Of a stretch of 64,000 nucleotides of DNA, positions 13,580-42,376 are shown piece after piece. The stretch is from assembly GCA_964396385.1 (NCBI GenBank), contig CAYNFH010000004.1, positions 5,008 through 69,007 on the forward strand. Reading direction: 5' to 3'. The position numbers were made by a program, and so were the translations under genes. Source of the stretch: an uncultured Chthonomonadaceae bacterium. Its GTDB lineage: Bacteria; Armatimonadota; Chthonomonadetes; Chthonomonadales; CAJBBX01. Numbering within the stretch: the first letter of the stretch is position 1; each line of letters opens with the position of its first letter. Below the pieces are notes generated by a model. The model worked only from the letters and a program-made list of their open reading frames with translations, was not told where the DNA came from and searched no databases.

Positions 13580-13585
13580 AGAGAG

Positions 13586-13846: not shown

Positions 13847-13847
13847 G

Positions 13848-25090: not shown

Positions 25091-26657
25091 ACCAGTTCTC
25101 GCAATGCGAGCGGCGAAGCGGAACAACATGCTGGGCCTAATACTTGGTGCCGGTACGAGTAAGGGCTTCAAACTGCCGATGTGGGAGGACCTCCTCGCAA
25201 ACCTCGCAGCCGACCCGAGGGTAAGTGGCAAAGCTGTCTACGATCCGAAGCAAAACGTTACTGCTAGAGCGGAGATGCTATATCGCCACTTCGCGGCTGC
25301 CAAGAGCGCCAGCTATGGAACCTCGGCTATGGATCCGAGAGCGCTCGATCGTCGCATTCGGGGGGAGTGGTTCGAGGTTATCCGGGAGCTCCTGTATGCG
25401 AACCTACCCCCGCCGGACGGCAAGTTCCATCGTGCGCATCCCTATCTGTCGGAATTCCTCGAGATCATCATCCAGTCGCCGCTCACCGTGACATACAACT
25501 TCGACAGCTGCATCGAAATGATGCTCGATGACTACCAGAAGGCGATGGCTCGAACTGAACGCCTCTACGAAGTCATATTTGACACCTACACTCCTTACCA
25601 GCGTCACAACGGCGTTATCTACCACCCGAACGGATTCCTGCCGGCAAATAAGCTTGAGGCGTTCAGCGACTCCATTGTATTCTCAGAAGAGCAGTTCGGC
25701 GACCAACTGCTCGACAGCGTAGCGGGCAGGTATTCGTCGCTGGCACACCACCTATCAAAGCATACGTGCCTGCTCTTGGGCGTCTCATTGAACGACGAGA
25801 CACTCCGCCACCTGCTCCACGCAAATGCTCGGATGAGCCCGGGTCATTACCACTACTGTGTAGAGTACCTGTCGGCGCCCGATGCTATGACGAACGAGGC
25901 GAAGGCAAGCCTATCCGAGTACAGGTTCGACATCTACAACCTCATAACCCTGTTTCTGACTGAGCCCGAAATAAAGGCCCTGGGCCAGTTGTTAACGTGC
26001 GACCTGGAGGCTCTTCGCAATGATGCGGGCCGTGCCAGAATCCCGCTAGTCTGGGTCTACTACATCACGGGCATCCCTGGCACTGGTAAGACCACTGTTT
26101 GCCGCCATTTAGGCGACCTCATCACACTTGGCGAGTGGCTTGAAGCACCGCTCGACCTCCTATCCACCGACTATACTTCTCTGACGAGTCCGGAGCGTGA
26201 GAAGGTAGATGCGTGGGTCGCCAACCAATTTGTGGAGAAGAACATGGCACTCCTAAGTGTACCAGAGGGCGTTATCGTCGTTGATCGCTGCCCACTGGAT
26301 CCACTCGCGTTCGTAGACACTCCCGACAGGCCCGCGAAGGCCTCGGCATACGGGCCACAGTTCCAACGTGGCCAGTCGGACAGGCATCCGGTTGCTGGAA
26401 GTGTCCTTATTCTTACGGCGGATCCGGTGGAGGTTTCGGCCCGGCTGGAACGACGGCAAGGGGAGCGCAAGGACCCTAAGTACCTTGAGAAACTCCAGGT
26501 CAATCACCTTGATATCTATAAGGCTCCCAGGGTCGTGCTCATGGATACGAGGGCACTAACGCTGGACCAACAGATTCGTTCTATCGCGCGTTACATACAT
26601 CGTGAAAAGTACGCGGAGGTCGATATCAGTGCGCGTCTGACGGAGCTGACGCATTGA
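25047..26657 (+). CDS. SIR2-like (SIR2_2-type) domain fused to a deoxynucleoside/NMP-kinase-like P-loop domain
   Basis: SIR2_2 motifs: LILGAGTSKGFKLPMWEDLL, VTYNFDSCIE, VIYHPNGFL, LLLGVSLND. Kinase-like motifs: Walker A GIPGTGKT, VIVVDRCPLD, and lid ARLERRQGERKD. AAGGAG RBS 11 nt before the ATG at 25047. Overlaps the upstream gene by 44 nt. Confidence 0.8.
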   Translation: MSLTTRATVLKKYPRPVLAMRAAKRNNMLGLILGAGTSKGFKLPMWEDLLANLAADPRVSGKAVYDPKQNVTARAEMLYRHFAAAKSASYGTSAMDPRALDRRIRGEWFEVIRELLYANLPPPDGKFHRAHPYLSEFLEIIIQSPLTVTYNFDSCIEMMLDDYQKAMARTERLYEVIFDTYTPYQRHNGVIYHPNGFLPANKLEAFSDSIVFSEEQFGDQLLDSVAGRYSSLAHHLSKHTCLLLGVSLNDETLRHLLHANARMSPGHYHYCVEYLSAPDAMTNEAKASLSEYRFDIYNLITLFLTEPEIKALGQLLTCDLEALRNDAGRARIPLVWVYYITGIPGTGKTTVCRHLGDLITLGEWLEAPLDLLSTDYTSLTSPEREKVDAWVANQFVEKNMALLSVPEGVIVVDRCPLDPLAFVDTPDRPAKASAYGPQFQRGQSDRHPVAGSVLILTADPVEVSARLERRQGERKDPKYLEKLQVNHLDIYKAPRVVLMDTRALTLDQQIRSIARYIHREKYAEVDISARLTELTH

Positions 26658-27154
26658 GCGACCAGCCAGACAAAGCCTCCAGGCACGGCTCCCGCCATCG
26701 AGTGTACCTAGCGGGCCCGCTTTTTAGCCGGGCCGAGCGTGAGTTCAACGGATTTCTGAAGCGGGAGCTTTCAGTTTACTTCGATGTATTCCTACCCCAG
26801 GAGGACGGTTGCCTCTTGGCTGAGATGACACGCAACGGCATTCCTCCCGAACAGGCATCTAGGCGTGTTTTCGAATGCGACATTGCGGAGCTCGACCGAT
26901 GTACGATACTCGTCGTCGTACTAGACGGGCGAGCGGTTGACGAGGGAGCTGCATTCGAACTCGGTTACGCCTTTGCAAAGGGGAAGACGTGCGTTGGCCT
27001 CCAGACTGATGAGCGACGACTCTTACGATGCGGCAACAACCCGATGATAGATGGTCCATGCAGCCGGCTGTTTCATAACGTTGACGCACTGCTGGCATGG
27101 GCGGATCAAGTCAGCACTGTGGGTCTTCAGGCGTATGTCGCCTCGGAGGGATAG
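26654..27154 (+). CDS. Nucleoside 2-deoxyribosyltransferase-like protein
   Basis: RVYLAGPLFS and VVVLDGRAVDEGAAFELGYAFAKGK motifs of the Nuc_deoxyrib_tr fold. The TTG start overlaps the upstream TGA (TTGA). GTG at 26702 is an alternative start. Confidence 0.8.
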   Translation: MSDQPDKASRHGSRHRVYLAGPLFSRAEREFNGFLKRELSVYFDVFLPQEDGCLLAEMTRNGIPPEQASRRVFECDIAELDRCTILVVVLDGRAVDEGAAFELGYAFAKGKTCVGLQTDERRLLRCGNNPMIDGPCSRLFHNVDALLAWADQVSTVGLQAYVASEG

Positions 27155-27167
27155 TAGAGTTCGACAG

Positions 27168-28241
27168 ATGTCCATTGTAGATTCCACAGCTCTCTTTTGG
27201 GAGCACCATTCCGACCTTCTGAATGAGTTCCGAACTTCGCAGCGCAGTTCAGCCGACCCAATTGGCAAGTTGCTCCGCGAGACGTGTAGCTCACCAACCG
27301 CGACGGTCGAGAGAGCCTTTGCCTTGGCGAAAGACATGATCCCCGCGGCTCAAGAGGGGGATTTTCGGGTACTCGAGTCTCTTGGACGCGATACAGTGTG
27401 GACAGCGCTGGTATATATGGAAACTTGGGGGCGTGATGATAAGGTCACTTCAGGAGAATTGGATGGTTCAGAGGAAGTGGATCCACGTCGGAGTCAGTTA
27501 GAGCGGCTCGAAGCGCTAGTCAAAGAGAAAGGCCATGACTACAACTCGGGCGGCGTGCCTATCCTCTCTTACTTCGTTTGGCAGGAGCGGAGCATCGTAC
27601 ACGAGATCCACAAGAGGGCGCAACGTCTTTACTCGATAGATAGAGCAGGTAGCGCGAAATTCGAAGGGGCTGCTTCAACGGCATTCGACCTGTGCTCCTT
27701 CGCACTGTTTCTGCTGGCCTACCTACGGACGTTCGGTCAGGACCCGCTTAACCGCTATACCATCTGCTCCTATGGGTACATCGATGCGATTGTGGGTACT
27801 CTTTGCTACCTCAGGCGCGATGGACTGACGCTTGTGCTGCGCTCCGATGATCGCAGGACCGGAGCCTGTAACGGTCTGGGCGGCAAAGTTGAAGGGGCGG
27901 AGACACCTCGTAGCTGCGCAATGCGCGAGATTGCGGAGGAGTGCGGCCTTCAGGTGACGGACTTGGCACTCAGAGGAATTGTCACAGTTGTTGGTGAGAG
28001 GACATGTCCGTGGCACCTGTTCATATACACAGGGTCGGATTGGGTAGGTGAACCTCGTGAATTGACCAGTCATGGCACTTTGGAATGGGTCCCTGATCAC
28101 GACCTCCCGCAGTTGTCGCTAGGGCAGGGTGACCGCTACTTCCTAGAGCGGTTGGATATGCTTGGTTGGTTCGAGGGAGTATTGGAGTACAGGGATGGGG
28201 CATTGGTCCGGCACGACTTCGTCCAGCACGGCGACGGATAA
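27168..28241 (+). CDS. All-alpha MazG/DUF1599-like domain (tentative) fused to a NUDIX hydrolase
   Basis: Nudix box GKVEGAETPRSCAMREIAEECGL fits G-x5-E-x7-REUxEExGU. N-terminal KGHDYNSG...HEIHKRAQRLYSI...AFDLCSFALFLLAY resembles DUF1599. ATG 27135 is an alternative start. Confidence 0.75.
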   Translation: MSIVDSTALFWEHHSDLLNEFRTSQRSSADPIGKLLRETCSSPTATVERAFALAKDMIPAAQEGDFRVLESLGRDTVWTALVYMETWGRDDKVTSGELDGSEEVDPRRSQLERLEALVKEKGHDYNSGGVPILSYFVWQERSIVHEIHKRAQRLYSIDRAGSAKFEGAASTAFDLCSFALFLLAYLRTFGQDPLNRYTICSYGYIDAIVGTLCYLRRDGLTLVLRSDDRRTGACNGLGGKVEGAETPRSCAMREIAEECGLQVTDLALRGIVTVVGERTCPWHLFIYTGSDWVGEPRELTSHGTLEWVPDHDLPQLSLGQGDRYFLERLDMLGWFEGVLEYRDGALVRHDFVQHGDG

Positions 28242-30346: not shown

Positions 30347-32831
30347 CGGAATCACGCGCCGCAGGTTCCTTGCCACATCGCTGGCAGGGCTCGCCGCAGT
30401 GGAGTGGCCCAGTGCGGAGGGAATGCCGCGCGACCACGCCGCCGTCCAGGATGCGCTGGCGCTGACGGACCCGGCCGGCGTGCGCCTGCAAGGGTACGTG
30501 GGCGAGAAGATAGACCTGGACCTCCGCAACCGCGTCATGGCGCAGGACATCCACAAGCTGGTGAAGCCCTTCTTCGACCAGACGGAGGTGGGTGACGGCG
30601 ACTGGCGCAACGAGTACTGGGGCAAGTGGATCACCTCCGCGGTAGAAGCGTACGACTACGAGCCCTCCCCGGAGCGCCGAGCCGTTGTGGAGCGCGGCGT
30701 AAGCGAGCTGCTGCCCGCCCAGAATCCGGACGGCTACATCGGCACGCGCAGCAAGGCCAGCCGCCTGCACGGGTGGGACGTTTGGGGCCGCAAGTACGTG
30801 CTGCTGGGGCTCCTCGCCTGCTACGATATGACCGGCAGCCGCACCATCCTGAACGCCGCCCGGCGCCACGAGGACAGCCTGCTCGCGGAGGTCGGCCCGG
30901 AGCCGGGCAAGGCCAACATCGCGGAGGTGAGCTACCAGGACCACCAGAGCCTGCCTTCCTGTTCCGTGCTGGAGCCCACGGTGCTGCTCTACCGCCGCAC
31001 CGGCGACCCGCGCTACCTGCGGTTTGCCGAGTACATTGTGGGCCAGTGGTCCAGGCCCAACCGCTTCAATCCCACCGGCATCCGGCTGGTAGAGAAGGCT
31101 ACTGTGGGCGCGCCGCCTTCCAGCATAGCTAATGGCAAGGCTTACGAGATGACCTCCTGCTTCGAGGGGCTGGCGGAGCTGTACCGCGCCACCGGGAAAC
31201 CGGAGTACCTGGAGGCGTGCCGGCGTTACGCGGACGGAATCGTGCGGGACGAGCTGTTCGTAGTCGGCTCCGGCTCCAGCCGGGAGGTGTGGTTCGGCGG
31301 CCGATCCAAACAGACGCAGGATAACCCGGATCCGATGGAGACCTGCGTCACGGCCACATGGATGAAGTACTGCCTGCAACTCCTCCGGCTCACCGGCGAC
31401 TCCCGGTACGCGGACCAGATGGAGATCAGCCTGTACAACGCGCTGCTGGGCGCGCTTAAGCCGGACGGAAGCTGGTGGGGCTACTACACGCCCATGCAGG
31501 GAATCAAGCGGCCGAGCGGCATCCAGCACGCGGACGTGGGGCTGAGCTGCTGCGTGGCCAACGGTCCCCGCGCCCTGATGCTCACGCCGCAGTGGGCCGT
31601 TATGGCCAGTGGCCGCCGACAGGAATCCGGTCTCACGACTCACGACTCACGACTCACGACTTTCGATGGCGTCGTGGTGAACGTGTACTGTCCGGGCACG
31701 GCGACAGCGAGGATGGCGTCCGGGCGGCGCGTCCGAATCGAGCAGGAGACGGAATATCCCGTGACGGACCAGGTGCGGCTCACAGTGCGGCCGGAGCGTC
31801 CGGCCACCTTTACGCTCAGCCTGCGCATCCCGGAGTGGAGCGAGCGGAACGCGCTGGAGGTGAACGGCCGGCCGGCGGACGTGGAGCTCCGGCCGGGCTC
31901 GTACGCGGCGGTCCGTCGCCCGTGGAAGCCGGGCGACACGGTTACGCTCACGCTGGACCTGCGCGGCAGGGTGCTGGAGGACCCCGGCAAGTCCGGAGCA
32001 GTCGCCGTCCTGCGCGGGCCGATTGTGCTGGCGATGGATCGGCGGCTGGTGAAAGATGACGGAGGACGGAGGACGGAGGACAGATCCGGAATCCGACTCA
32101 TCAACCCTCAACCTTCAACCTTCAACCAGATGCCGGATGGGCGGATCGAGCTGAAGCAACTGGCGGCGCCGGCAGGAATCTGGATGGCCTTTGAGGCGCC
32201 GTGCTCGACGGAGGGCGGCGGAGAGGCCCGGCTGCCGCTGTGCGACTACGCCTCGGCGGGCAACACGTGGGGTCGGGATTCGGAGTTCCGCGTGTGGCTG
32301 CCCCAGCCGCTGGAGGGGTTCGGGTCCGAGGCCGTCTCCCTCCAGGGCGCTTCCTGGATCTGGTTCGCAGGGGATCGCGGCGCCCGGTCGCAGCGTTACG
32401 CGCCTGCGGAGGACCTGCCGGCGGGGACGCGATACTTCCGGCGCGTCCTGGAGGTTCCATCCGGGATCCGGCGGGCGCGCATCACGCTCACCGCCGACGA
32501 CGGCTTCGTGCTCTACGTGAACGGCGAGGAAGTAGGGCAGGCGGCGGACTGGGGGCACCTGCACACGTTCGACATCACGCGCCGCCTCCGCGCCGGACGA
32601 AACGTGATCGCGGTGGCAGCCACCAACGCGAGCGTGTCTCCAGCCGGGCTTATCGCCGGCATCGAGCTGCTGCCAGCCGGCGGCCGGCCGGTTGTGCTGC
32701 TCACGGGCGCGGACTGGAAGAGCGCTGAGAATTCCGGAGCGAACTGGCAGGCGGTGGAATTCGACGACAGCGTCTGGTCCGCCGCCCGAGTCCTCGGCCC
32801 GTTCGGCATGGCTCCCTGGGGCGACTTGTAG
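30333..32831 (+). CDS. GH127-like (DUF1680, beta-L-arabinofuranosidase family) protein with a TAT signal and a C-terminal galactose-binding/rhamnosidase-N-like domain
   Basis: TAT motif RRRFLATSLAG. GLSCCVANGPR matches the Cys-Cys zinc/nucleophile motif of GH127. C-terminal WIWF...TRYFRR...LTADDGFVLYVNGEEVG. Two low-complexity inserts. Confidence 0.8.
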   Translation: MPDGSGITRRRFLATSLAGLAAVEWPSAEGMPRDHAAVQDALALTDPAGVRLQGYVGEKIDLDLRNRVMAQDIHKLVKPFFDQTEVGDGDWRNEYWGKWITSAVEAYDYEPSPERRAVVERGVSELLPAQNPDGYIGTRSKASRLHGWDVWGRKYVLLGLLACYDMTGSRTILNAARRHEDSLLAEVGPEPGKANIAEVSYQDHQSLPSCSVLEPTVLLYRRTGDPRYLRFAEYIVGQWSRPNRFNPTGIRLVEKATVGAPPSSIANGKAYEMTSCFEGLAELYRATGKPEYLEACRRYADGIVRDELFVVGSGSSREVWFGGRSKQTQDNPDPMETCVTATWMKYCLQLLRLTGDSRYADQMEISLYNALLGALKPDGSWWGYYTPMQGIKRPSGIQHADVGLSCCVANGPRALMLTPQWAVMASGRRQESGLTTHDSRLTTFDGVVVNVYCPGTATARMASGRRVRIEQETEYPVTDQVRLTVRPERPATFTLSLRIPEWSERNALEVNGRPADVELRPGSYAAVRRPWKPGDTVTLTLDLRGRVLEDPGKSGAVAVLRGPIVLAMDRRLVKDDGGRRTEDRSGIRLINPQPSTFNQMPDGRIELKQLAAPAGIWMAFEAPCSTEGGGEARLPLCDYASAGNTWGRDSEFRVWLPQPLEGFGSEAVSLQGASWIWFAGDRGARSQRYAPAEDLPAGTRYFRRVLEVPSGIRRARITLTADDGFVLYVNGEEVGQAADWGHLHTFDITRRLRAGRNVIAVAATNASVSPAGLIAGIELLPAGGRPVVLLTGADWKSAENSGANWQAVEFDDSVWSAARVLGPFGMAPWGDL
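31623..31661. repeat. Heptamer element inside the GH127 CDS (GGAATCCGG core plus CACGACT x4)
   Basis: Reverse complement of the GAGTCGT x4 / GAGACCGGAATC segment at 1977-2012. Encodes SGLTTHDSRLTT in both host genes. Confidence 0.85.
32061..32128. repeat. Heptamer element inside the GH127 CDS (GGAGGAC x3, CCGGAATCC core, TCAACCT x4)
   Basis: Read directly from the sequence. The GGAGGAC arm recurs in queE (57011-57045) and at 52174-52224. The TCAACCT arm recurs, reverse-complemented, at 29232-29245. Confidence 0.85.
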
Positions 32832-33105
32832 GGCCGGTCCCGCGTAGCCGCCCGCCTCGCCTGCAACCTCGGCGTGCCGGGCTGGGTTCTAGAGGCAGGA
32901 GGAAGTCGTGCCTGAGCCATCTGAGAGACCGGAGCCGTCGATTGGGGCGCTGATTGCGCGCGGGATCGCGATGATCGTGTGCGCGATTGTCGCGGCGAAC
33001 GTGATCCTCGCGCTGCATGCGCCGGTGGGGCACTGAGGTCCCCTGGCATGGGCCGGCGATTCCGGTACTGTCTGGACCCGGTGTTCCTGGGGGCCGCCGC
33101 GCTCT
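32826..33105 (+). repeat. Left copy of an approximately 280-bp direct repeat
   Basis: Near-identical to 40588-40866 with only scattered mismatches. Covers a small ORF plus the first 19 or so codons of the membrane protein gene. Confidence 0.9.
32908..33036 (+). CDS. Small membrane protein (42 aa), duplicated at 40670-40798
   Basis: GTG start behind a GGAGGAAG RBS. Sequence VPEPSERPEPSIGALIARGIAMIVCAIVAANVILALHAPVGH. Confidence 0.4.
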   Translation: MPEPSERPEPSIGALIARGIAMIVCAIVAANVILALHAPVGH

Positions 33106-33464
33106 ACCTGCTCAACCGCTTCGCGCTGAAGCCGCTGGAGGGGCCACATGGCGGCTTCTTCCACAGCTACGGCAACGACCTGCTCTGCATCCCCTTCTGC
33201 CTTCCTCCCTGCCTCTGGGCGTACCGCCGTCTCGGCGTGCGGGACCATGACCGGATGCCGACGCGCTTTGAGCTGGCGGCGCACGTGGTGGTCTGGTCCG
33301 TCTACTTCGAGGCCGTCGCGCCGCACCTGCGGGCGTTCTCCTGGACGGTAGGAGATCCGTGGGATGCGGTGAGCTACGCGGTGGGGGCGGCGGTGGCGGG
33401 CGTGTTCTGGGGAGTGTTCCGCCCGGCGACCGCGGCGCGCCCTGTTGCGGAGGCGGCGCCGTGA
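33048..33464 (+). CDS. Small polytopic membrane protein
   Basis: 138 aa with 3-4 hydrophobic segments. Its first 19 or so codons are duplicated as a truncated remnant at 40810-40881. Confidence 0.55.
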   Translation: MGRRFRYCLDPVFLGAAALYLLNRFALKPLEGPHGGFFHSYGNDLLCIPFCLPPCLWAYRRLGVRDHDRMPTRFELAAHVVVWSVYFEAVAPHLRAFSWTVGDPWDAVSYAVGAAVAGVFWGVFRPATAARPVAEAAP

Positions 33465-34252
33465 AGCGGCTCGCTTTCGCGGCGTACTCGCTGGCGTGCC
33501 TGAGTGCGCTGGCGGTGCCGGTACGGGCGCTTGGCTATGTGGCATCCTTGCCTCAGCGGCACCTCATACCCCTCTGGACAGTCCTCTGGTGGCTGGCGGC
33601 CATCGCCGCGCCGCTTGGAGCCGTGTTGGGCGGCTTGTGCGCACTGCTGCGCTCGGAGAGCGGGCGACGGATTCCGCACCCGCGGGCTACGGCGGCTATC
33701 GTGGTGGGCGGATTCAGCGCGCTCATCATGCCGTACATGATTCGGTATGTGGACGAAGCGCGGGGCATCCTCTACGACAATTCCGGACGGAAGGCAGCCT
33801 GTTTCAGCAATTTGAGGCAGGTGGGTCTCGCCGTGTCGATGTACGCTCAGGACTACGACCGACAGCTTCCCTTCGCAGCGAGTTGGCACGACGCCGTCTA
33901 TCCATACCTCAAGAACGAGTATGTCTTTCAATGTCCATCTGCAGAGGACCAAACGCAGTCGTCGTATGGACTCAATCGGCGCATCACCGGCCTGCACCTG
34001 CCCGACTTGAGCAATCCAGTTGAGGCCGTGATGGATTTCGACTCCATTCCGGGCAGGAACCAAGCTGGCGGAGTGGAGCTGCTGCCCGAACCGCCGCGCC
34101 ACGTGGATGGGGAGAATATCGGGTTCATCGACGGTCACGTGAAGTTCACGGCTGAGGGTCGAATCCCTAGTCTGGAGTGGCGACCAACACTTCTGACTAC
34201 CGGCGCACCGGAGCATGGAGATCGAAGAGGTCGAAGAGTTCGGTCTCGGTGA
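33461..34252 (+). CDS. Membrane protein with a DUF1559-like (H-X9-DG) C-terminal domain
   Basis: GTG start overlaps the upstream TGA. Three TM segments, then NLRQVGLAVSMYAQDYD and HVDGENIGFIDGHV. Confidence 0.6.
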   Translation: MKRLAFAAYSLACLSALAVPVRALGYVASLPQRHLIPLWTVLWWLAAIAAPLGAVLGGLCALLRSESGRRIPHPRATAAIVVGGFSALIMPYMIRYVDEARGILYDNSGRKAACFSNLRQVGLAVSMYAQDYDRQLPFAASWHDAVYPYLKNEYVFQCPSAEDQTQSSYGLNRRITGLHLPDLSNPVEAVMDFDSIPGRNQAGGVELLPEPPRHVDGENIGFIDGHVKFTAEGRIPSLEWRPTLLTTGAPEHGDRRGRRVRSR

Positions 34253-35846
34253 GGGCGGTGGAGAGATCGAGGGTGGCATCGTCCACCACCTCCTGGAAGA
34301 TGCGGCGCTTCTCGCGCAGCTTGGCGTCGATACGCTCCTCGATGGTATTCGCGCAGACGTATCGATAGACGGTAACCGGGCGCTCCTGACCCAACCGGTG
34401 CGCCCGGCCCTCCGCTTGGTCCTCCACCGCGGGATTCCACCAGCGGTCCAGGTGGAAGACGTAGGACGCGGCCTGCAGGTTGAGGCCGTACCCTCCTGCC
34501 CTCAACGAGAGCAGAAGCGCCCTGTGCTCCGGATGGGAGAGAAAGAGATCCACTACCCGGGTACGCTCCCGGAGGCTCATCTTGCCGGTAAACAGGAGCG
34601 GCTTGAACTCTGCCAGGCAGGCCGCTGCCCGCTCCAGCCCGAACGTGGCGTCCACGAACTGAGAGAAGACAAGCGCCTTCTGGCCCTCCTGCTCCAGCAG
34701 CCGCAGCCTTTCGGAGATATCGGCCAGCTTCCCGGATTCGCCGGTGGCCGGATCGAAGTTGCAGAGCTGCTTGAGTCGCGCGATGAGCTCGAGCACATGG
34801 ACGATGTTGACGGCGCCCTCCGCCCTGCGGAGCCGAACGATCCCCTCCTGCTCGGCCAGTTCGTACGCCGCCCTCTGCCCGGCCGGAAGCTCAATAACCA
34901 CCTCGTTGATCCGCTTGCGCGGCAGTTCCGGCAGCACGTCCTCCATCCGCCGTCGGAGCTGGACGGAATGCAGACGGGCGCGAACCTGTGCCGGCTCGGA
35001 GGAAGTCGAGGGCTCCTGCCAGTCTGGCAGCAGAAAGGCGAGCAGCGAAGCCACGTCCTCCAGACTGTTCTCCAGTGGAGTACCCGTGAGCGCCCACCGG
35101 CGCGAGGCCGGGACTCGCCGGCAGGCTACGGAGACCGCCGCGTGTCGGTTCTTGATGCGCGAAGCCTCATCCAGAATCAGAACGCTCCATGGCGCACGCA
35201 TGGCCGGGCTGTCCCGCACCTCCATCACGTCTGACCGGACCGTCTCATAACCGGCCAGCCGCACGTGTGCCGGCACGCGCCAGAGGTGGCCGCGCTCAGC
35301 CGGATCACCGGATACCATCGCCACCCGCAGGTCCGGCGCCCACCGCGCTAACTCTCGCCGCCACTGGGGCAGGAGCGACGCCGGACATACGATCAGAGCC
35401 GATTCCGCCTCCTGCCGGTGGAACAGGATGCGCAGCGCGGCGATGGTCTGGACGGTCTTGCCGAGACCCATCGAGTCCGCAAGGAGCAGGGCGGACCGGG
35501 TGAGAAGCGCCAGGACCCCTTCTCGCTGGTATGGCAGCAGCGGTGCGGGCCATTCCAGCACGCCATTGGGCGTTGCGAGCGAGGTGACGGGACACTGCAG
35601 CGCTGCAGCCAGCCTCCGCAGGAGGTCGGCGGCCTCCGAAAGCGGCGGCTTGTCCCCTAAGCCTTCCTCGCCCTCTCCGTTAGCGGAGTCCAAGGCGTCG
35701 CTCAGCGCATCGAAATCAAACCAGCCGATGGTGTGCCGCAGGGCGCGGCCCATGCTCCAGGTGGGCGGTTCGACGCGGCCTGCTTCTGCCAGGCGGAAGG
35801 CACCAACCGGCTCCCGCCGTGCGATGCCAACGCTAAAGGGTGTCAT
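34197..35846 (-). CDS. SNF2-family helicase (compact, 549 aa)
   Basis: LLPYQREGV, DSMGLGKTVQ (motif I), LILDEASRIKN (motif II), LVFSQF, and RAHRLGQERPVTVYRYV (motif VI). Confidence 0.9.
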   Translation of the reverse strand: MTPFSVGIARREPVGAFRLAEAGRVEPPTWSMGRALRHTIGWFDFDALSDALDSANGEGEEGLGDKPPLSEAADLLRRLAAALQCPVTSLATPNGVLEWPAPLLPYQREGVLALLTRSALLLADSMGLGKTVQTIAALRILFHRQEAESALIVCPASLLPQWRRELARWAPDLRVAMVSGDPAERGHLWRVPAHVRLAGYETVRSDVMEVRDSPAMRAPWSVLILDEASRIKNRHAAVSVACRRVPASRRWALTGTPLENSLEDVASLLAFLLPDWQEPSTSSEPAQVRARLHSVQLRRRMEDVLPELPRKRINEVVIELPAGQRAAYELAEQEGIVRLRRAEGAVNIVHVLELIARLKQLCNFDPATGESGKLADISERLRLLEQEGQKALVFSQFVDATFGLERAAACLAEFKPLLFTGKMSLRERTRVVDLFLSHPEHRALLLSLRAGGYGLNLQAASYVFHLDRWWNPAVEDQAEGRAHRLGQERPVTVYRYVCANTIEERIDAKLREKRRIFQEVVDDATLDLSTALTETELFDLFDLHAPVRR

Positions 35847-35852
35847 TGAGTC

Positions 35853-35878
35853 TCAGGTGTTCAGGTGTTCAGGTGTTG
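35853..35878. repeat. Tandem octamer TCAGGTGT x3
   Basis: Lies between the SNF2 start and the upstream gene's stop. Same GGTGTTCAGG word as the hairpin at 36498-36549. Confidence 0.8.
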
Positions 35879-35938
35879 GGGACCAGTCACCTACGGAGTC
35901 CGTGCCTACATCGCCATAGATATGCCGCCATGCAGCAT

Positions 35939-36484
35939 TCACGTCCATTCGCGTTCATTCGCGGCCAACGACTCCCAGCTTGTTTGTGGATAGACCAGCC
36001 TCAGAGCCTGTAGCAGTCGCTCGAACGGCTCTGTGATGAAACCGCGGCGAGCGAGCTCATGCGCGAGGATGGCGGCCTTCATGCCCGAGGAAGGCGGATC
36101 GTTCACCCAGGCCCATTCGGCCGGTATCCCCTCCCGCGGCGGGACCACCTGTACGCACGGGATAGAAGGGGCGATCTCCGTCCGGCAGTACTCCGCCGAG
36201 CCCAGAGACGGTAAGCAGACCAGGAGGTCCGGCTCGCGGCGGCAGGCATCGAACAGGGAGTGAGTGAGGAGGGTAGTCCCCATGGGACGGACCTTCTCCT
36301 CCGGCCAGAGCAGTCCGGCCGGAGCGGCCAGGGTGTTGTGAACGAATTCCTGGGGCTGCCCCTTACCGTCGATGATCAGCAGACCGCCATAGAAGGAGCG
36401 GTCCGGCGGCAGCCATCGTACGTTCAGGTATGCCGCCAGGCCGTATTCCGCCGCCCGCGGCGTCTTGCGGTAGGGGACAGGCAT
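35939..36484 (-). CDS. Hypothetical protein (181 aa) within the SNF2/ATPase cassette
   Basis: Co-directional ORF with ordinary composition. No motif recognised. Bracketed by GGTGTTCAGG-type repeats. Confidence 0.6.
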   Translation of the reverse strand: MPVPYRKTPRAAEYGLAAYLNVRWLPPDRSFYGGLLIIDGKGQPQEFVHNTLAAPAGLLWPEEKVRPMGTTLLTHSLFDACRREPDLLVCLPSLGSAEYCRTEIAPSIPCVQVVPPREGIPAEWAWVNDPPSSGMKAAILAHELARRGFITEPFERLLQALRLVYPQTSWESLAANEREWT

Positions 36485-36497
36485 GGGTGAAAACCTG

Positions 36498-36549
36498 GGT
36501 GTTCAGGCGCTCGGACCCGAATACAGGAATACCTGAATACCTGAACACC
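36498..36549. repeat. Intergenic hairpin repeat (GGTGTTCAGG / CCTGAACACC arms)
   Basis: GGTGTTCAGG ... ATACCTGA ATACCTGA ACACC. The complementary arms flank an approximately 30-nt centre. Confidence 0.8.
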
Positions 36550-36552
36550 GTC

Positions 36553-37776
36553 CTATTCCTTGGCGTCCTCTTCCTCCGCGATGATGTCTGCGTCTGTAAT
36601 CTTGGTGGGGTCGAAGTGAACGTCTTCGACCTCTACGTCCGGGCGGTACTCCGGGTAGTAACGGTGTAGGTCCCATCGCGTGATCCATCCCCGAATCTCG
36701 GAGCGTATCGAGGTGCGGACATCGGCATGGCTCTCCGGGAGGGTGGGGACGGCGATGCCGTAAGCCTGCTCGTAGATCGCCTTGATCCGGTACTTTACCT
36801 CCTCCTCCTGCTCTCTGGTGGGCGATTCCAGCCGGTATGGGCTCTTCAGCATCTCGATACCGTAGAGCGCGCGACGGTCCCGCTCGTCCGCCGCAAAGCC
36901 GGAAGTGGCAAGCCGCTCCTCGTCGCGTGTGCCGCCGGTCACCGATTCCGCCACGAATCCGCTGGCGGTAGTGAACACCGGCAGCAGCGCGCTGCCGGTC
37001 TGCTCCGCCGCCTCACGCCACCAGCCAAGCTCGGAATAGGCCGCGAGGCGCTGGTTGAGCGAGAACTTGGCCACGCGCTCCATCTCATCGAACAAGATCA
37101 CCCAGCCCTTGCAGCCCGCCGCGCGGAAGATCTGGGCCAGGAGCCGGATGCGGTCATGGGCGAGAAGCCGGCTCGGAGGTCCCGCCAGGTCGTATGCCGC
37201 AGCCTGGCTGATCTGTTTGAGCCGGTTCTTGATGATGTTGCGGATTATTCCCCGGCCTTCGAAGTCGTTCAGGATCTGGAGGCGCAGCTCCTCATCGGCG
37301 CGGAATGCTTCGTAGATGTGCAGGAGAGCTCGGAAGCGGTCGTCTATACTCGCCGTGCGCGTCCACTCCTGCAGCGCGCGGTACTCCTCGGAATCGGTGC
37401 GCAGTGTGGACGCCAGCGCCCGAAGTGCCTTGCCGGCCTGCCCCGGGGCATGCGCCGCATCGGCTAAGGCCTTGACCACAAGCTGACCGTTGCCCAGCGG
37501 CATTTCCGGACTTATCACCACATAGCTGGTAACGAATCCCTCTCGCTCCGCAAGGATCTGGAGGTAGTTCAACAGGTGCGTCTTGCCCGCCCCGAAAGTG
37601 GCAGAGATAACGATGGGATTTGCGCCTCGGCCCTCCGCCAGGTTGTCCAGCTCGTCCTCGAATCGCTCCCGCACGTCATGCTGGGTGGTGCCAAGCTGCG
37701 CCGCCGCGTCGCGGCTGGGCACACCGGACCGTAGCGATTCCACCGCGCTACGCGCCATGACCGCATCCGGGCTCAT
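36553..37776 (-). CDS. BrxD/DUF2791-like P-loop ATPase
   Basis: N-terminal AVESLRSGVPSRD, Walker A ISATFGAGKTHLLNYL, and Walker B GWVILFDEMERV. The layout is as I remember for PF10923 (BrxC_BrxD). Its ATG overlaps the upstream stop by 4 nt. Confidence 0.75.
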   Translation of the reverse strand: MSPDAVMARSAVESLRSGVPSRDAAAQLGTTQHDVRERFEDELDNLAEGRGANPIVISATFGAGKTHLLNYLQILAEREGFVTSYVVISPEMPLGNGQLVVKALADAAHAPGQAGKALRALASTLRTDSEEYRALQEWTRTASIDDRFRALLHIYEAFRADEELRLQILNDFEGRGIIRNIIKNRLKQISQAAAYDLAGPPSRLLAHDRIRLLAQIFRAAGCKGWVILFDEMERVAKFSLNQRLAAYSELGWWREAAEQTGSALLPVFTTASGFVAESVTGGTRDEERLATSGFAADERDRRALYGIEMLKSPYRLESPTREQEEEVKYRIKAIYEQAYGIAVPTLPESHADVRTSIRSEIRGWITRWDLHRYYPEYRPDVEVEDVHFDPTKITDADIIAEEEDAKE

Positions 37777-38885
37777 GCCGAGTCCTCCAGGAAGACCAGC
37801 GACGCCGCCCGATTGGCGAACTGCACGTCATGCACCTCCTGCCCGATGCGCGTCTGTAAGGCGTCGTAGTCGAAATAGCAGCGCTTCACGCTCGGATCGA
37901 GAGTCTTGTCGCGGTAGAAGTCGGGAGTGGTGAGGATCACCAGCTGGAACCGCTCGAACCGGTCGATCTCGTCGATGAAGCGGCGGACCATGGTAAGCAT
38001 CTGCATGTAGGCCGCGTCGCTATATGTGACGTCGGGCTCGCTGGACGCATCTTCCGCCGCCAGCCGCGCCAGCTCATCCGCGCTCGCTCCGCGGGCCAGC
38101 GCCTCCCTGACAAGCTGAAGCTGCTCCGCCTGTCGCTTGCCTCGGCCCACCCTCTTATACTCGTACGGCCGGAAGTCGAACGTGACTACCAGGCCCGCGT
38201 GACCGGAGTGCGGCAACCATCGGCAGAAGGAAGCCAGCATGGATCGGGCGTTGCCGAGATTGATCCTCTCATAGATCAGGACCTTCTTGAGAGCGGATGC
38301 CGCTCCGGGCATGGTCCGGCCGTGGAACCAGCCCAACAGCACCTCTTCCGTGGTCGGCGTTACGGCATCCGGAATGAGCTGCGCGCGTCCGAGCGCCGTG
38401 ATGGCGGTACGGAACTCGATGGAGAGGCGCGGATCCCGGAGCTGCGGGGTGGCGAGCTGCTGCTGATACTGGTTAAGGAGGTCCTGCGGCTCACGTCCAT
38501 TGTCGCGCGCGATGCGGTCCAGATCATTCAGAGCACGCCCCTCCGCCAGGTGAATGCCCTGAGATTGCAGGTAATGACGCGCCTGCACTCCCGCCCACGC
38601 GCGCCAGTCAACGTCCCGCGTGACCGCGAAGTAAAAGCGGTCGATGCGGTGGTAGTCCGGCCGTTTGCCCTCCGGTGTTCGCTGTGCCGGGTCCAGGTGC
38701 GCGTGGTAGTAGCCGCCGTTCCGGGCCATCTGGGCGACCGTCTCGGCCGCCCGCTCCGGAAGGTCTCCCTCACCGGTGATTACCTTGACGGCGGAGCCTC
38801 CGGAGCGCACGTAGTCGGCGAGGTACTCGCAGTCCAGCACCTCTGTCCAGGCACCCAGCGGAACGCGCGGCACGATATCACCCAT
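37773..38885 (-). CDS. Hypothetical protein, apparently a P-loop-less paralogue of the adjacent ATPase
   Basis: SGGSAVKVITGEGDLPE sits where the neighbour has GRGANPIVISATFGAGKT. AGLVVTFDFRPYEY sits where the neighbour has GWVILFDEMERV. Translationally coupled to the ATPase gene. Confidence 0.6.
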   Translation of the reverse strand: MGDIVPRVPLGAWTEVLDCEYLADYVRSGGSAVKVITGEGDLPERAAETVAQMARNGGYYHAHLDPAQRTPEGKRPDYHRIDRFYFAVTRDVDWRAWAGVQARHYLQSQGIHLAEGRALNDLDRIARDNGREPQDLLNQYQQQLATPQLRDPRLSIEFRTAITALGRAQLIPDAVTPTTEEVLLGWFHGRTMPGAASALKKVLIYERINLGNARSMLASFCRWLPHSGHAGLVVTFDFRPYEYKRVGRGKRQAEQLQLVREALARGASADELARLAAEDASSEPDVTYSDAAYMQMLTMVRRFIDEIDRFERFQLVILTTPDFYRDKTLDPSVKRCYFDYDALQTRIGQEVHDVQFANRAASLVFLEDSA

Positions 38886-38902
38886 GCGCCTTGTTACCCC
38901 TT

Positions 38903-39661
38903 CTATTTGAACCAGATGGCGTAGTAGCGGATGGGCCGGCCGTCTTCGGAGCTGACCTGGAATACGTCCCGCTCCTTGGCGTTGCCGGACGGGTACTCTA
39001 TCTCAAACGTGCGGCCGCCGCGCGTTGCCCGCAGGCCTGAGCGGTGCAGGGCATATATCTGCTGGGCGAATGCCATCGGAGGGTTCTCCCGCTTGTATCC
39101 CGGAGAGAGGCAGAACAGATCGTAGATGTCGCGGAATTTGGCGAACGGCCGCTCCTTGCCGCCCAGGTACTGGCAGGCGCCCAAGAGGCTCTCCAGGAAT
39201 TCCTGTGAGTTGGCGGCGGCGGTGCGGTTCCGCAGCCGCTTGAGTTCCTCGGCGGCTACGCTGGGCCGGATGAAGGGCCAGGAGAGCTTTCCCAGCAGAA
39301 GCACGCCTCGGGCGGGCTGCGCGCGAACCGTAACCGGCGAGGAGATGAGGGTGTCGTCTTCCGCGACCGTCCGGAGGCCGAACCGCTCGGAGGCGGTCTG
39401 CTGGAGCTCCTGCCGCCAGGCGTCGCCTTCCAGGTAGGTGCGAGAGTCAAACTCCCAGGCTTGCCGGGCGTCTCTCGTGGTTTGCGGCAGAGCGCCGCCT
39501 AGCTCCTCCGCTTGCGCCGCGGCCTTCTGCATGTTACCGAGGTGGCCGTGGTGGCAGGCTTTCTTCCAGGCTTTGAGCGCGCTGACGTACTTCCCGGCCG
39601 CCTTGACCAGCCCGTCCACACGCTCCTCCTGCTCCTGCAGCGCCTCCTCCAAGCTCAACAT
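38903..39661 (-). CDS. Hypothetical protein (252 aa), first gene of the cassette
   Basis: ATG 39659-39661 behind an AGGAGG RBS. The longer 385-aa ORF would run through the opposite-strand gene at 39758-40066. Confidence 0.6.
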   Translation of the reverse strand: MLSLEEALQEQEERVDGLVKAAGKYVSALKAWKKACHHGHLGNMQKAAAQAEELGGALPQTTRDARQAWEFDSRTYLEGDAWRQELQQTASERFGLRTVAEDDTLISSPVTVRAQPARGVLLLGKLSWPFIRPSVAAEELKRLRNRTAAANSQEFLESLLGACQYLGGKERPFAKFRDIYDLFCLSPGYKRENPPMAFAQQIYALHRSGLRATRGGRTFEIEYPSGNAKERDVFQVSSEDGRPIRYYAIWFK

Positions 39662-39753
39662 AGCACCTCCTGGTACTTTGCCCCATTCTACCCGCTTAGT
39701 GCGTGCCCTTCCCAGGAACCTCGCGCTCTCAGTGCCAACCTGTCGGCCAACGG

Positions 39754-39759
39754 TATAAT
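39754..39759 (+). promoter_or_regulatory. Possible -10 box (TATAAT) for the HEPN-module operon
   Basis: Perfect TATAAT with no good -35. If it is used, the transcript would start near ATG 39767, giving a leaderless mRNA. Confidence 0.25.
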
Positions 39760-40066
39760 GATGAGCATGAAAACGCTGGCCGATTCTCTGATTGGTGGAT
39801 TGACTGAGTCCAAGGAACTCGAACGTGTCTTGCGGGAGCGTGTTGGAGCGTCCATCCAAGTTGCAGATTGGGTGGTCGGCGAAGGTACCGATGCGGGGGG
39901 CGACAGGGCCATCTGGGTTTACGGCCTGCTGAGTGACCCCGACACTTCCTTCGAGATCACGGCCAATGTTCGCAAGGAAGTACGGGCTGTTATCCAAGAC
40001 GCTTTGGGCAGCGATGCCCCCTGGGTCTACGTGCGCTTCACCGATGCCGCTGAAGTTCACGGTTAA
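39758..40066 (+). CDS. Small hypothetical protein (about 100 aa), upstream partner of the HEPN-like protein
   Basis: TAATG stop/start overlap with the next gene. The start may be ATG 39758, 39761 or 39767. Confidence 0.5.
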   Translation: MMSMKTLADSLIGGLTESKELERVLRERVGASIQVADWVVGEGTDAGGDRAIWVYGLLSDPDTSFEITANVRKEVRAVIQDALGSDAPWVYVRFTDAAEVHG

Positions 40067-40572
40067 TGGCTCTCCATCACGACCTTCTTGCTCAAGCTCG
40101 CCTTCTTGCCACTCATGAACCCCGAAAGCCCAAGCAGGCGAGTTTGCGCCGGGCCATTTCTACAGCGTACTATGCTCTATTTCACCTACTGACATCCGAA
40201 GCCGCAGGTAGTTGGTTGACAGGAGCCGGACGTGACGCATTGCGAGCTTCCCTCAGGCGTGCATTTGACCATTCTACGATGAGGCGAGCATGCCAGGAGA
40301 TTGTGAAGCCCAACGAAGGCAAACTGCATTCCGCATTGTGCGGAGTGCCGTGCCCGCCTCGACTGAAGGACGTGGCGGCCGCGTTTGTGGAGCTTCAGCA
40401 AGCCCGACACGAGGCAGACTACGACGTTACCCACCGCTACACGCGTCGAGAGGCACTGGAAATGGTAATGCTCGCCGAAGGCGCCTTCGACGATTGGCGG
40501 GCCGCGCGCAATAGCATTCCGGCAGAGGCCTTCCTGGCCGCCCTTATCGCCGAGAGAGGCATGGGGCGCTAG
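40066..40572 (+). CDS. HEPN-like protein
   Basis: LRRAISTAYYALFHLL helix and the RHEADYD motif (R-x-x-x-D-Y, classical HEPN type), in a 168-aa all-helical-looking protein. Confidence 0.55.
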   Translation: MALHHDLLAQARLLATHEPRKPKQASLRRAISTAYYALFHLLTSEAAGSWLTGAGRDALRASLRRAFDHSTMRRACQEIVKPNEGKLHSALCGVPCPPRLKDVAAAFVELQQARHEADYDVTHRYTRREALEMVMLAEGAFDDWRAARNSIPAEAFLAALIAERGMGR

Positions 40573-40587
40573 CGTCTTCGAAGTGAG

Positions 40588-40866
40588 TTGTAGGGGCAGC
40601 CCTGCGTAGCCGGCCGCGTCGCCTGCAACCTCGGCGTGCCGGGCTGAGTTCTAGAGGCAGGAGGAAGTCGTGCCTGAGCCGCCTGAGAGACCGGAGCCGT
40701 CGATTGGGGCGCTGATTGCGCGCGGGATCGCGATGATCGTGTGCGCGATTGTCGCGGCGAACTTGATCCTCGCGCTGCATGCGCCGGTGGGGCACTGAGG
40801 CCGAAGCGGATGGCCGCGCGATTCCGCTACTGCCCGGACCCGATATTCCTGGCGGCCGCCGCGCCC
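40588..40866 (+). repeat. Right copy of the approximately 280-bp direct repeat
   Basis: Matches 32826-33105. Carries the duplicated small ORF (40670-40798) and a truncated start of the membrane protein gene. Confidence 0.9.
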
Positions 40867-40881
40867 TCCCTCAGGCAATAG
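40810..40881 (+). pseudogene. Truncated duplicate of the 5' end of the 33048-33464 membrane protein gene
   Basis: MAARFRYCPDPIFLAAAAPSLRQ-stop compared with MGRRFRYCLDPVFLGAAALYLL... in the intact copy. Confidence 0.7.
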
Positions 40882-41057: not shown

Positions 41058-42299
41058 ATGCCCTGGATTCCGTCTCCTTCCCTCTGCTGCGCTGTGGCTA
41101 TCGTGGCGGCCGGATGCCTGATGGCTGTGGCCACCGGGCAGACGCGGGAGTGGCCCAGCGTGGAGATGCTGCCGGCCAACCCGGAACTGCCGGACCCGCT
41201 GATGATGTTCGACGGCACGCGCGTTACCACCAGGCGGCAGTGGAGAATGGAGCGGCGGCCGGAGCTCAAGCGGCTCTTTGAACACTATATGTACGGTACG
41301 GCGCCTCCTCCTCCCCGCAACCTCAAAGCCACCCTGGAGCGCGAGGACCCGCGGTTCTTTGGCGGCAAGGCTACCGAGCGGCAGGTGACGCTGCGGTTCG
41401 GCCCGAAGGACACGCCTCCCATTCACCTGCTCCTGCTCATCCCCAACCGGCGAAGCAGCCCCGCGCCGGCCTTCGCGGGCCTCGCCTTCTGCCGCAACTA
41501 CGCCGTGGTGGACGATCCCACGCTCCCCAGGCCGGCCGGCGCGAAGGACCCGCGCGGCTCTCAGAGGGACACCTGGAATGTGGAGCAGTCCATCGACCGG
41601 GGCTACGCCGTGGCCACCTTCTTCAACGGGGACGTGGAGCCGGACGACCCGAACGCCACCACCGGCGTGCGGGCAAGCTACCGCCCGGTGGGACGCTGGG
41701 ACTGGGGCACCATCGCCGCCTGGGCATGGGGCATCCAGCGCGTGGTGGACTACCTCCGGACCGTGCCGGATATCGACCGCCGCCGCATCGCCGCGGTGGG
41801 CCACTCACGCAACGGCAAGGCAGCCCTGCTCGCCGCCGCTTTCGACGAACGCATCGCCCTCGCCATCCCGCTCCAGGCCGGCTGCGGGGGTACGGCCCCC
41901 AGCCGCGGGACGGTCGGGGAGTCTGTACAGGCGATTAACGACCGCTTTCCGCACTGGTTCAACGCACGGTTCAAGCGGTTCAACAACCGGCCGGAGCGGC
42001 TGCCCTTCGACCAGAATGGCCTGTTAGCCCTCGTGGCCCCGCGGCCGGTGCTCTTCTCCAACGCGACGGAGGACACCTGGGCCAATCCGGCCGGCCAGTT
42101 CGAGGTGCTGCGCGGCGCCGACCCGGTTTACCGCTTCCTTGGGGTGGATGGGCTGGGAGCCCAGCAGATGCCGCCCACCGGCGAGCTCCTCAACAGCCGG
42201 CTCGGCTACTTCGTCCGCCCCGGCCAGCACTCGATGACACGCGTGGACTGGAACGCGTTCCTGGATTATGCCGACCAGTGGCTGAAGGCACCGGAGTAG
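41058..42299 (+). CDS. Carbohydrate esterase family 15 (glucuronoyl esterase)-like
   Basis: Signal peptide. GHSRNGKAAL serine motif (G-x-S-R-x-GK), and the N-terminal LPDPLMMFDGTRV region typical of CE15. Confidence 0.8.
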   Translation: MPWIPSPSLCCAVAIVAAGCLMAVATGQTREWPSVEMLPANPELPDPLMMFDGTRVTTRRQWRMERRPELKRLFEHYMYGTAPPPPRNLKATLEREDPRFFGGKATERQVTLRFGPKDTPPIHLLLLIPNRRSSPAPAFAGLAFCRNYAVVDDPTLPRPAGAKDPRGSQRDTWNVEQSIDRGYAVATFFNGDVEPDDPNATTGVRASYRPVGRWDWGTIAAWAWGIQRVVDYLRTVPDIDRRRIAAVGHSRNGKAALLAAAFDERIALAIPLQAGCGGTAPSRGTVGESVQAINDRFPHWFNARFKRFNNRPERLPFDQNGLLALVAPRPVLFSNATEDTWANPAGQFEVLRGADPVYRFLGVDGLGAQQMPPTGELLNSRLGYFVRPGQHSMTRVDWNAFLDYADQWLKAPE

Positions 42300-42376
42300 A
42301 GGAGTGTTGGAGTGATGGAGTAGTGACTCCGGATTCCGCTTCACAGCACTCCATCACTCCAGTACTCCAGCACTCC
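42293..42376. repeat. Hairpin repeat (GGAGTGATGGAGT arms, CCGGATTCC core) overlapping the sulfotransferase 5' end
   Basis: Left arm GGAGTAGAGGAGTGTTGGAGTGATGGAGTAGTG, core at 42329-42337, right arm CAGCACTCCATCACTCCAGTACTCCAGCACTCC. Confidence 0.85.

Follow-up and report, generated by a model that had tools for sequence, protein, structure and literature searches.

A conserved operon of BrxD-like and SNF2 ATPases from Armatimonadota, a candidate modular DNA-targeting system

We describe a five-gene cassette in a 64,000-nucleotide (nt) stretch of DNA from an uncultured Chthonomonadaceae bacterium of the Armatimonadota (GenBank assembly GCA_964396385.1, contig CAYNFH010000004.1, positions 5,008–69,007); this stretch, at its full length, is called the window below. 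The five genes, here named A to E, lie on the minus strand at 34197–39661 and form a conserved operon that is horizontally spread. Genes A, B, and C are its invariant core, and the helicase partner that follows them is exchangeable: four superfamily 2 (SF2) motors are found on A-B-C, namely SNF2 with a partner resembling endonuclease V (EndoV), DUF3670-SNF2, XPB-like, and Lhr-like. We classify the cassette as an AAA+/SF2-helicase module of the conflict type, in which one subunit is a pseudo-ATPase and two others, A and D, belong to families without annotation. By analogy with known ATPase–helicase pairs, A-B-C may act as a loader or activator, E as the motor, and D as a recognition or nicking component, with foreign-DNA interference as the outcome; we hold this reading to stand about evenly between right and wrong.

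The cassette opens with gene A (38903–39661, 252 amino acids (aa)), the adaptor candidate, which is first in the cassette in every case. It continues with gene B (37773–38885, 370 aa), a degenerate PF10923 paralogue, gene C (36553–37776, 407 aa), a predicted BrxD-like AAA+ ATPase, gene D (35939–36484, 181 aa), a protein with a predicted RNase H fold, and gene E (34197–35846, 549 aa), a compact SNF2 ATPase/translocase. Our check of the open reading frames (ORFs) recovered all five at the coordinates that an earlier note on this DNA had given them, along with the 4-nt overlap that it reported between the start of gene C and the end of gene B. The remaining gaps are 17 nt (A–B), 68 nt (C–D), and 92 nt (D–E), no terminator-like sites were seen within the five-gene block, and the 3′ end of gene E overlaps a convergent DUF1559 gene by 56 nt. 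The mechanical ORF of gene A extends to a GTG at 40060. However, the ATG at 39661 is preceded by ccAGGAGGtgct, which supplies an AGGAGG ribosome-binding site (RBS), and ∼160 gene A homologues of 250–253 aa share the corresponding start residue; ATG 39661 is therefore the right start, as the note had also placed it. A 99-nt intergenic region (39662–39760) holds the gene A RBS and separates gene A from a divergent plus-strand pair, a small ORF and a HEPN-like gene. The operon promoter presumably lies in this region. No consensus promoter for the cassette was detected, and the sole sigma-70-like site (39732–39759) faces the plus-strand gene.

The gene order is retained across distant phyla. We scanned one genome per species (185,579 species) and found a cassette locus in 28, at 45–70% identity, a rare and patchy distribution. 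These species genomes belong to the Armatimonadota (Chthonomonadaceae, Capsulimonadaceae, and Fimbriimonadales) and the Planctomycetota (Pirellulaceae and Planctomycetaceae), and further include a Deltaproteobacteria metagenome-assembled genome (MAG), the candidate lineage UBP9, and a MAG labelled Janthinobacterium. By tblastn, A-B-C-D-E are colinear in every sufficiently long locus of this set, at 45–78% identity; the sole exception, locus L028, carries A-B-C only. Independent assemblies with gene calls show the same order with gene sizes of 250, 370, 408, 178–192, and 553–560 aa, and 11 metagenome contigs show it as well. The flanking genes, in species genomes and in assemblies with gene calls, vary from locus to locus. 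The earlier note had taken the five genes for one unit and had let that proposal depend on their being found together in other genomes, which they are, in the same order, in all three kinds of source.

The family extends well beyond the five-gene form. Gene A has 164 close homologues (250–270 aa, 56–72% identity) and gene D has 162. A gene A profile search among 1.84 billion representatives retrieves 528 clusters (at 50% identity) with E ≤ 1e-3, and at least 592 metagenome contigs were recovered with one peptide pattern, so that the A-B-C family must be far larger than its five-gene subgroup; the metagenome scan itself used a 20-sequence subgroup. The sources are mainly phyla that have been little studied (Armatimonadota and Planctomycetota) and unassigned metagenome contigs. 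Single loci depart in detail: gene C is apparently truncated in L017, and in L022 a gap separates B from C. In L024, the final 135 nt of the SNF2 gene region (15403–15537) recur ∼900 nt downstream, at 16308–16442, with 90% identity.

Metagenome loci reveal how the core is combined with its partners. We mapped 80 such loci with home-made hidden Markov models (HMMs), counting gene C hits at model positions ∼345–754, as positions 1–340 of that HMM are a spurious alternate-frame read-through of B. A, B, and C are adjacent in all 80. Partners were counted in the 21 metagenome loci that have at least 3.5 kb after gene C. D and E follow in 11 of these; a 953-aa DUF3670-SNF2 protein without D follows in two, an XPB/ERCC3-like helicase in two, and a 1563-aa Lhr-like helicase in one (L112), while in the other five nothing follows. 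In L120 and L121, A-B-C is followed by an SNF2 gene, and L121 has an uncalled D homologue between gene C and that gene.

Two natural fusions predict which subunits are in contact. In L035, from a Nitrospinota MAG, A is followed by the gene for an 811-aa fusion of B and C, whose N-terminal half matches B (BLASTP E = 6e-33) and whose C-terminal half matches C (4e-47). In L038, a 614-aa SNF2 protein opens with a D-like domain (hhalign probability 96%, E = 4.4e-09). These fusions point to B–C and D–E complexes. L035 holds a second fused PF10923 protein of the B-C type (L035:12863–14734; 865 aa in the source gene call), which is encoded 5 kb downstream of the first A/B-C pair, past a histidine kinase and a response regulator, and is cut by the locus end. 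A distant branch of the family carries a conserved same-strand protein directly upstream of A; its copy in L077 (4519–6195) is 558 aa long without a Pfam match, and homologues that vary in length or are cut by the contig end occur in L066, L068, L074, L088, L098, L109, L110, L111, and L117. The partner in the L077 branch is an XPB-like helicase, and the upstream protein may be a further component of an XPB-using subtype.

Genes B and C form a degenerate and an intact version of the same type of protein. Members of PF10923 are AAA+ ATPases of the ORC (origin recognition complex)/Cdc6 type. Gene C matches this Pfam family (BrxC_BrxD, formerly DUF2791) with 74.7 bits (E = 9e-21; gathering threshold, 22.2), residues 9–99 aligning to profile positions 7–98. 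Among the PADLOC models, it matches BrxD (1.9e-14) and, over residues 9–95 only, SngB (PDLC03959; 2.3e-08). Against the NCBIfam model for BREX BrxD (NF033438), gene C scores 54.7 bits and gene B 25.5 bits; as the cut-off is 350 bits, gene C is not a BrxD equivalog. The Walker A (‘FG.GK.HLL’) and Walker B (‘fDE’) motifs are kept in 29 gene C orthologues, and we predict from them that gene C encodes an active BrxD-like ORC/Cdc6-type ATPase. Gene B likewise passes the PF10923 threshold (28.9 versus 22.2 bits; E = 7.4e-07), and its one PADLOC match, a weak one, is to BrxD (4.9e-06). Because both genes match PF10923, we take them to be paralogues. BLASTP finds no similarity between the two, which marks gene B as highly diverged and presumably inactive. 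All 32 gene B orthologues lack the Walker motifs, ‘GGs.VK’ and ‘lDf’ standing in place of GxxGK[ST] and hhhhDE. Gene B is therefore predicted to be the inactive partner of gene C.

Gene E is a complete SNF2 ATPase. It matches the Pfam families SNF2-rel_dom (PF00176; 9.5e-48) and Helicase_C (PF00271; 6.6e-18), and 21 orthologues keep all SNF2 motifs (LADdMGLGKt, LDEASrIKN, LTGTPlEN, and QA.sR.HR.GQ). The N-terminus, of ∼100 aa, is family-specific. The best PADLOC matches, which cover the motor core only, are to ZorD (2.1e-66) and DpdE (8.9e-65), and DrmD (5.5e-40) and the BrxHI/BrxHII models are matched over the same core. The corresponding NCBIfam scores fall well below the cut-offs: 167 against 1500 bits for ZorD (NF041790), 89.7 against 610 for DrmD (NF038317), and 57 against 500 for DpdE.

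Gene A resembles no described protein family in our searches. Sequence searches of Pfam, NCBIfam, PADLOC, and the PDB gave no meaningful match, and profiles built from 30 and from 120 sequences retrieved only designed helical bundles and coiled coils from the PDB. Pfam scans of each member of these sets gave scattered noise only (e.g., DUF632), and the N-terminal extensions of eight longer homologues contain no known domain. The protein has four N-terminal helices followed by an alpha/beta C-terminal part, and only the helical N-terminus is recognisable. A single-sequence AlphaFold2 (AF2) model, with a predicted local distance difference test (pLDDT) score of 42, is unusable. We propose that gene A encodes an adaptor or sensor subunit.

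Gene D can be placed by its predicted structure. An AF2 model from a 116-sequence alignment (pLDDT, 91.7; predicted template-modelling score (pTM), 0.86) has the RNase H-type order beta1-beta2-beta3-alpha-beta4-alpha-beta5. A Foldseek search of the PDB matches it to EndoV (3hd0; E = 3.2e-06, probability 1.00, TM up to 0.61), then to the C-terminal endonuclease of UvrC (2nrt; 1.2e-05), and then to Argonaute PIWI and RNase H, and a search of the viral structure library BFVD likewise returns RNase H proteins. At the sequence level, a PDB profile search with gene D found no match, and none of the 116 homologues matches any Pfam family even at E ≤ 10, Endonuclease_5 included. hhalign of gene D against the Escherichia coli and Thermotoga maritima EndoV proteins gives a probability of 0.3% and aligns only ‘LLIIDGKG’ with ‘LVFVDGHG’; given that value, a motif alignment between gene D and EndoV made by eye was not used as evidence. 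Within the close family, the conserved acidic columns are D21, D39, E46, D86, E103, and E152, and D39, G42, P44, E46, N50, E152, and R156 are invariant. Column 21 belongs to the first strand and holds an acidic residue in 112 of the 116 homologues (Asp in 108 and Glu in four); His occurs in two, Leu in one, and Asn only in the window protein (codon 36422–36424). Gene D may instead encode a non-catalytic recognition domain, akin to inactive PIWI proteins.

These assignments agree with the earlier note where it had likened gene C to the BrxD/DUF2791 family, now supported by the Pfam and PADLOC matches, and had called gene E a compact SNF2 helicase with all core motifs, now supported by Pfam and by the motifs of the orthologues. 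Its count of three unknown partners stands for gene A; it does not for gene B, a PF10923 paralogue, or for gene D, with its predicted RNase H fold of the EndoV/UvrC/PIWI type.

We propose that the cassette encodes an ATP-driven DNA-targeting machine of two modules. The first would comprise gene A with a heteromeric ORC/Cdc6-type AAA+ pair in which B has lost the ATPase motifs and C keeps them, and the second would comprise E and D. A-B-C would recognise a DNA substrate in an ATP-gated manner, and the ATP cycle of C would recruit, load, or switch on the SNF2 motor E. Through D, the motor would take hold of a specific DNA structure or end, which D would possibly nick. The outcome would most likely be interference with invading DNA (phage or plasmid), probably without self-marking, since the cassette has no methyltransferase gene. 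The scheme is modelled on helicase loaders of the ORC/Cdc6 type and on the pairs BrxD–BrxHI and SngB–SngC.

We infer a defence function from the likeness to BrxD–BrxHI and Shango, the patchy spread, and the recurrent toxin-antitoxin neighbours. The only recognisable relatives of gene C are BrxD and the Shango protein SngB, and the rare, patchy phyletic spread is accompanied by differing neighbourhoods and by toxin-antitoxin or selfish genes. A broader proposal is that A-B-C, an adaptor with an inactive/active pair of BrxD-like ORC/Cdc6 ATPases, forms the centre of a large modular family so far undescribed, which works with at least four SF2 motors and provides methylation-independent immunity against phages or plasmids, widespread in soil and freshwater bacteria. 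The AAA+ pair would serve as a helicase loader or activator on foreign DNA, and the family would offer a tractable model for BrxD in BREX and SngB in Shango. We advance this proposal tentatively, as somewhat less probable than not.

The closest counterparts of the cassette belong to known anti-phage systems. BrxD is a standalone ORC/Cdc6 AAA+ protein that is tightly linked to the helicase BrxHI, for which it is the proposed loader or activator, and BrxHI has been compared to Lhr-like helicases (PMC12839542). The cassette likewise places a standalone PF10923 ATPase of the ORC/Cdc6 type beside an SF2 helicase. Moreover, L112 joins the A-B-C core to an Lhr-like helicase, the very class to which BrxHI is compared, which strengthens the analogy with the brxD–brxHI pair that the earlier note had drawn. 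The pairing of an active with an inactive subunit in B and C also echoes that of BrxC with the inactive STAND protein BrxB. However, the cassette helicase is SNF2 whereas BrxHI is Ski2/Lhr-like, PglZ, PglX, PglY/BrxC, and PglW are not encoded nearby, and the cassette adds three dedicated proteins, namely gene A, the EndoV-like D, and the pseudo-ATPase B. Experiments have shown that Shango, in which a TerB protein accompanies an ATPase and a helicase, protects against phage. Like the cassette, Shango unites three kinds of component in a single operon: a PF10923-type ATPase, an SF2 helicase, and an accessory protein. It differs in that the cassette has no TerB, its SngB match is confined to ∼90 residues at the N-terminus of C, its ATPase is doubled (active/inactive), and an RNase H-fold protein is added.

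The likeness to other systems is confined to single components. The motor core of gene E aligns to the ZorD, DpdE, and DrmD models, but the 549-aa protein matches only the C-terminal motor halves of these 850–1300-aa proteins. The further domains of those proteins, for instance the Mrr-like nuclease named in the ZorD model description, are missing from gene E, and none of their partner genes accompanies it. The gene D model superposes on EndoV, on the C-terminal domain of UvrC, and on PIWI proteins in Foldseek. It differs from EndoV in being a 181-aa protein dedicated to an SNF2 partner (and fused to it in L038) with no sequence-level relationship.

Could the cassette instead be a divergent member or a fragment of a named system, i.e. 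the type 2 BREX pair, Shango, type I Zorya, DISARM, or Dpd? The matches of C to the PADLOC BrxD and SngB models, and of E to ZorD, DpdE, DrmD, and BrxHI/BrxHII, would favour this, but they involve generic ATPase and motor cores and lie far under the NCBIfam equivalog cut-offs. The PADLOC 2.0.0 models give no match to A or D. In PADLOC, the cassette proteins include no ZorA, ZorB, or ZorC, and the test for type I Zorya is negative. Neither TerB (Pfam) nor SngA (PADLOC) was found in A, B, or D, or among the 30 and 120 gene A homologues. The longest ORF in the window encodes 855 aa, which leaves no room for PglX, PglY, PglW, or DrmA, and of the ORFs left unexplained, the largest two are one HEAT-repeat-like and one Ig-like. 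No PglX, PglZ, PglW, or PglY gene stands among the neighbours, and no type 2 BREX gene is listed in the related loci with Pfam gene calls. For DISARM, there is no DUF1998 or DrmA match, and the window holds no ORF of sufficient size. Overall, TerB, PglZ, PglX, PglW, ZorA/B/C, DrmA/B, and Dpd are absent from the cassette, the window, and the Pfam-called loci. The earlier note was thus right that the window lacks the BREX proteins PglX, PglZ, PglW, and PglY and the DISARM protein DrmB/DUF1998. Its further suggestion that the cassette maps to no named system fits the missing PADLOC matches for A and D and the low equivalog scores, and literature searches found no description of this five-gene cassette. 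We consider membership in a named system highly improbable.

A second alternative, and the main rival to DNA interference, is genome maintenance. Here the ORC-like pair and gene A would sense damaged or stalled DNA and recruit an SF2 motor, with D as a lesion-binding or incising subunit. We rank it first among the rivals because the helicase classes and the EndoV/UvrC fold are typical of repair and because the neighbours are mostly housekeeping genes. The partner helicases are XPB/ERCC3-like, Lhr-like, and SNF2, and the closest folds of gene D are EndoV and the UvrC endonuclease domain; the lack of matches in plasmid, phage, and viral collections also fits this reading. A core repair pathway would not be expected, however, in just 28 of 185,579 species across distant phyla. 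The insertion site is variable, toxin-antitoxin and Uma2 genes lie in or beside the cassette, C has no named sequence relatives other than BrxD and SngB, both of them defence ATPases, and the canonical EndoV catalytic set is not recognisable in D. On this balance, we think a repair machine fairly unlikely, though it is the best placed of the alternatives.

Several observations weigh against the DNA-interference reading. The SNF2, XPB, and Lhr helicase classes, together with the EndoV/UvrC fold, are as typical of DNA repair as of defence. Metabolic families (SDR, ADH, ABC, and MFS) are the most frequent Pfam matches of the 143 ORFs that flank the cassette in 22 loci, and few of these ORFs match defence models (Cas3 or MADS); the loci with A-B-C alone are surrounded by ordinary metabolic genes. 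Further matches of flanking ORFs to AriA, PtuA, RmrA, and RtcR are probably generic ATPase matches. The earlier note's ‘typical defence-island context’ was in this respect an overstatement. No match was found by tblastn to A, B, or C in plasmids (PLSDB) or to A in phages (INPHARED), and two scans of IMG/VR viral contigs for A gave none either. The resemblance of the modelled gene D to EndoV is at the level of the fold only. The canonical EndoV catalytic residues (D43, E89, and D110 in T. maritima numbering) are not recognisable in gene D, which has no demonstrable active site, and neither its family-invariant residues nor its conserved acidic columns are kept in the distant L121 copy and in the fused L038 copy. 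If D21 is catalytic, N21 suggests that the window allele may be impaired. The role assigned to gene A is pure inference, as its model is unusable.

A third alternative is that the cassette is cargo or machinery (for replication, partition, or exclusion) of an integrative mobile element, the element being a 7.5-kb repeat-bounded segment of the window. Two 287-nt direct repeats (32823–33109 and 40585–40871), 90% identical overall and ∼97% identical over a ∼215-nt core, bracket this segment between GH127 and a CE15 esterase gene. It holds the cassette, a 161-aa membrane ORF, the DUF1559 gene, and the small ORF with the HEPN-like protein; GH43 and GH127 flank it on one side, and the CE15 esterase and a sulfotransferase on the other. 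The interruption of a carbohydrate-active enzyme cluster by direct repeats is therefore as the earlier note had seen it. The repeats, the transposases near L120 and L121, and the use of ORC/Cdc6-type ATPases and helicases as parts of replication initiators would all suit an element. Against it, the bounded segment contains no integrase, transposase, or relaxase, and the searches of PLSDB, INPHARED, and IMG/VR gave no relatives. What is duplicated is an RBS with a hydrophobic ORF of 42 codons, together with ∼75 nt from the start of the next gene, which encodes a membrane protein; such a copy of a small host ORF with the start of the following gene looks like a local duplication and not like an att site. 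Moreover, in nine other loci no direct repeats were found on either side of the cassette, so we read the window repeats as local history and not as part of the system, and we rejected them as a property of the cassette. An integrative element seems to us improbable.

If DNA interference is the correct reading, the cassette represents a new immune family and, within it, two protein families that had no annotation before: A and the EndoV-like SNF2 partner. If repair is correct instead, it is an unrecognised ORC-like damage-response module. The BrxD-type ATPase–helicase pairing is seen here apart from the other BREX components, subunit contacts are predicted by the natural B-C and D-E fusions, and the same core occurs with four helicase classes. 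The cassette, which fits a 5.5-kb construct, could clarify what BrxD-type ATPases do, although comparable candidate systems are numerous.

Toxin-antitoxin and selfish genes recur beside or inside the cassette. They include PIN/MazE and UPF0175 genes in L001, PhdYeFM/PIN in L037, ParE/PhdYeFM in L036, and PIN_10 in L121. In L014, a MazF-like ORF (PDB MazF6, E = 0.004) with one or two small overlapping ORFs lies between C and D (13548–14906), and in L021 a Uma2-like putative restriction endonuclease (E = 1.4e-06) with a 232-aa protein of unknown function lies between B and C (11849–13185). PIN and HicB-like clusters were recognised by eye from the sequences and not with a tool. An AAA_15/AAA_21 pair and a transposase lie directly upstream of the cassette in L120, and transposases are near the cassette in both L120 and L121. 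Short-chain dehydrogenase (adh_short) genes recur near the cassette in close as well as distant family members: they are divergent and directly upstream of A in L035, L086, L091, and L097, directly downstream of E in L004, and within 5 kb in L014, L015, L017, L022, and L037; this recurrence could reflect synteny that related genomes share, or chance, adh_short being such a common family.

Within the window, the plus-strand pair at 39761–40572 consists of a 101-aa ORF without matches and a 168-aa protein whose ATG abuts the last base of the first ORF. The earlier note's HEPN module is weakly supported, the 168-aa protein matching Pfam HEPN (PF05168) at E = 0.019, below the cut-off. The pair, with the sigma-70-like site just upstream, is a putative one of the toxin-antitoxin type. 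An inverted repeat at 42293–42376, with 29-nt arms that are 83% complementary and 26 nt apart and that are rich in GGAGT/ACTCC units, sits where the CE15 esterase gene meets the sulfotransferase gene. Finally, the G+C content is 0.565–0.59 at ∼24000–28000, compared with 0.64–0.68 in the rest of the window, and this part could be a foreign or differently composed segment.

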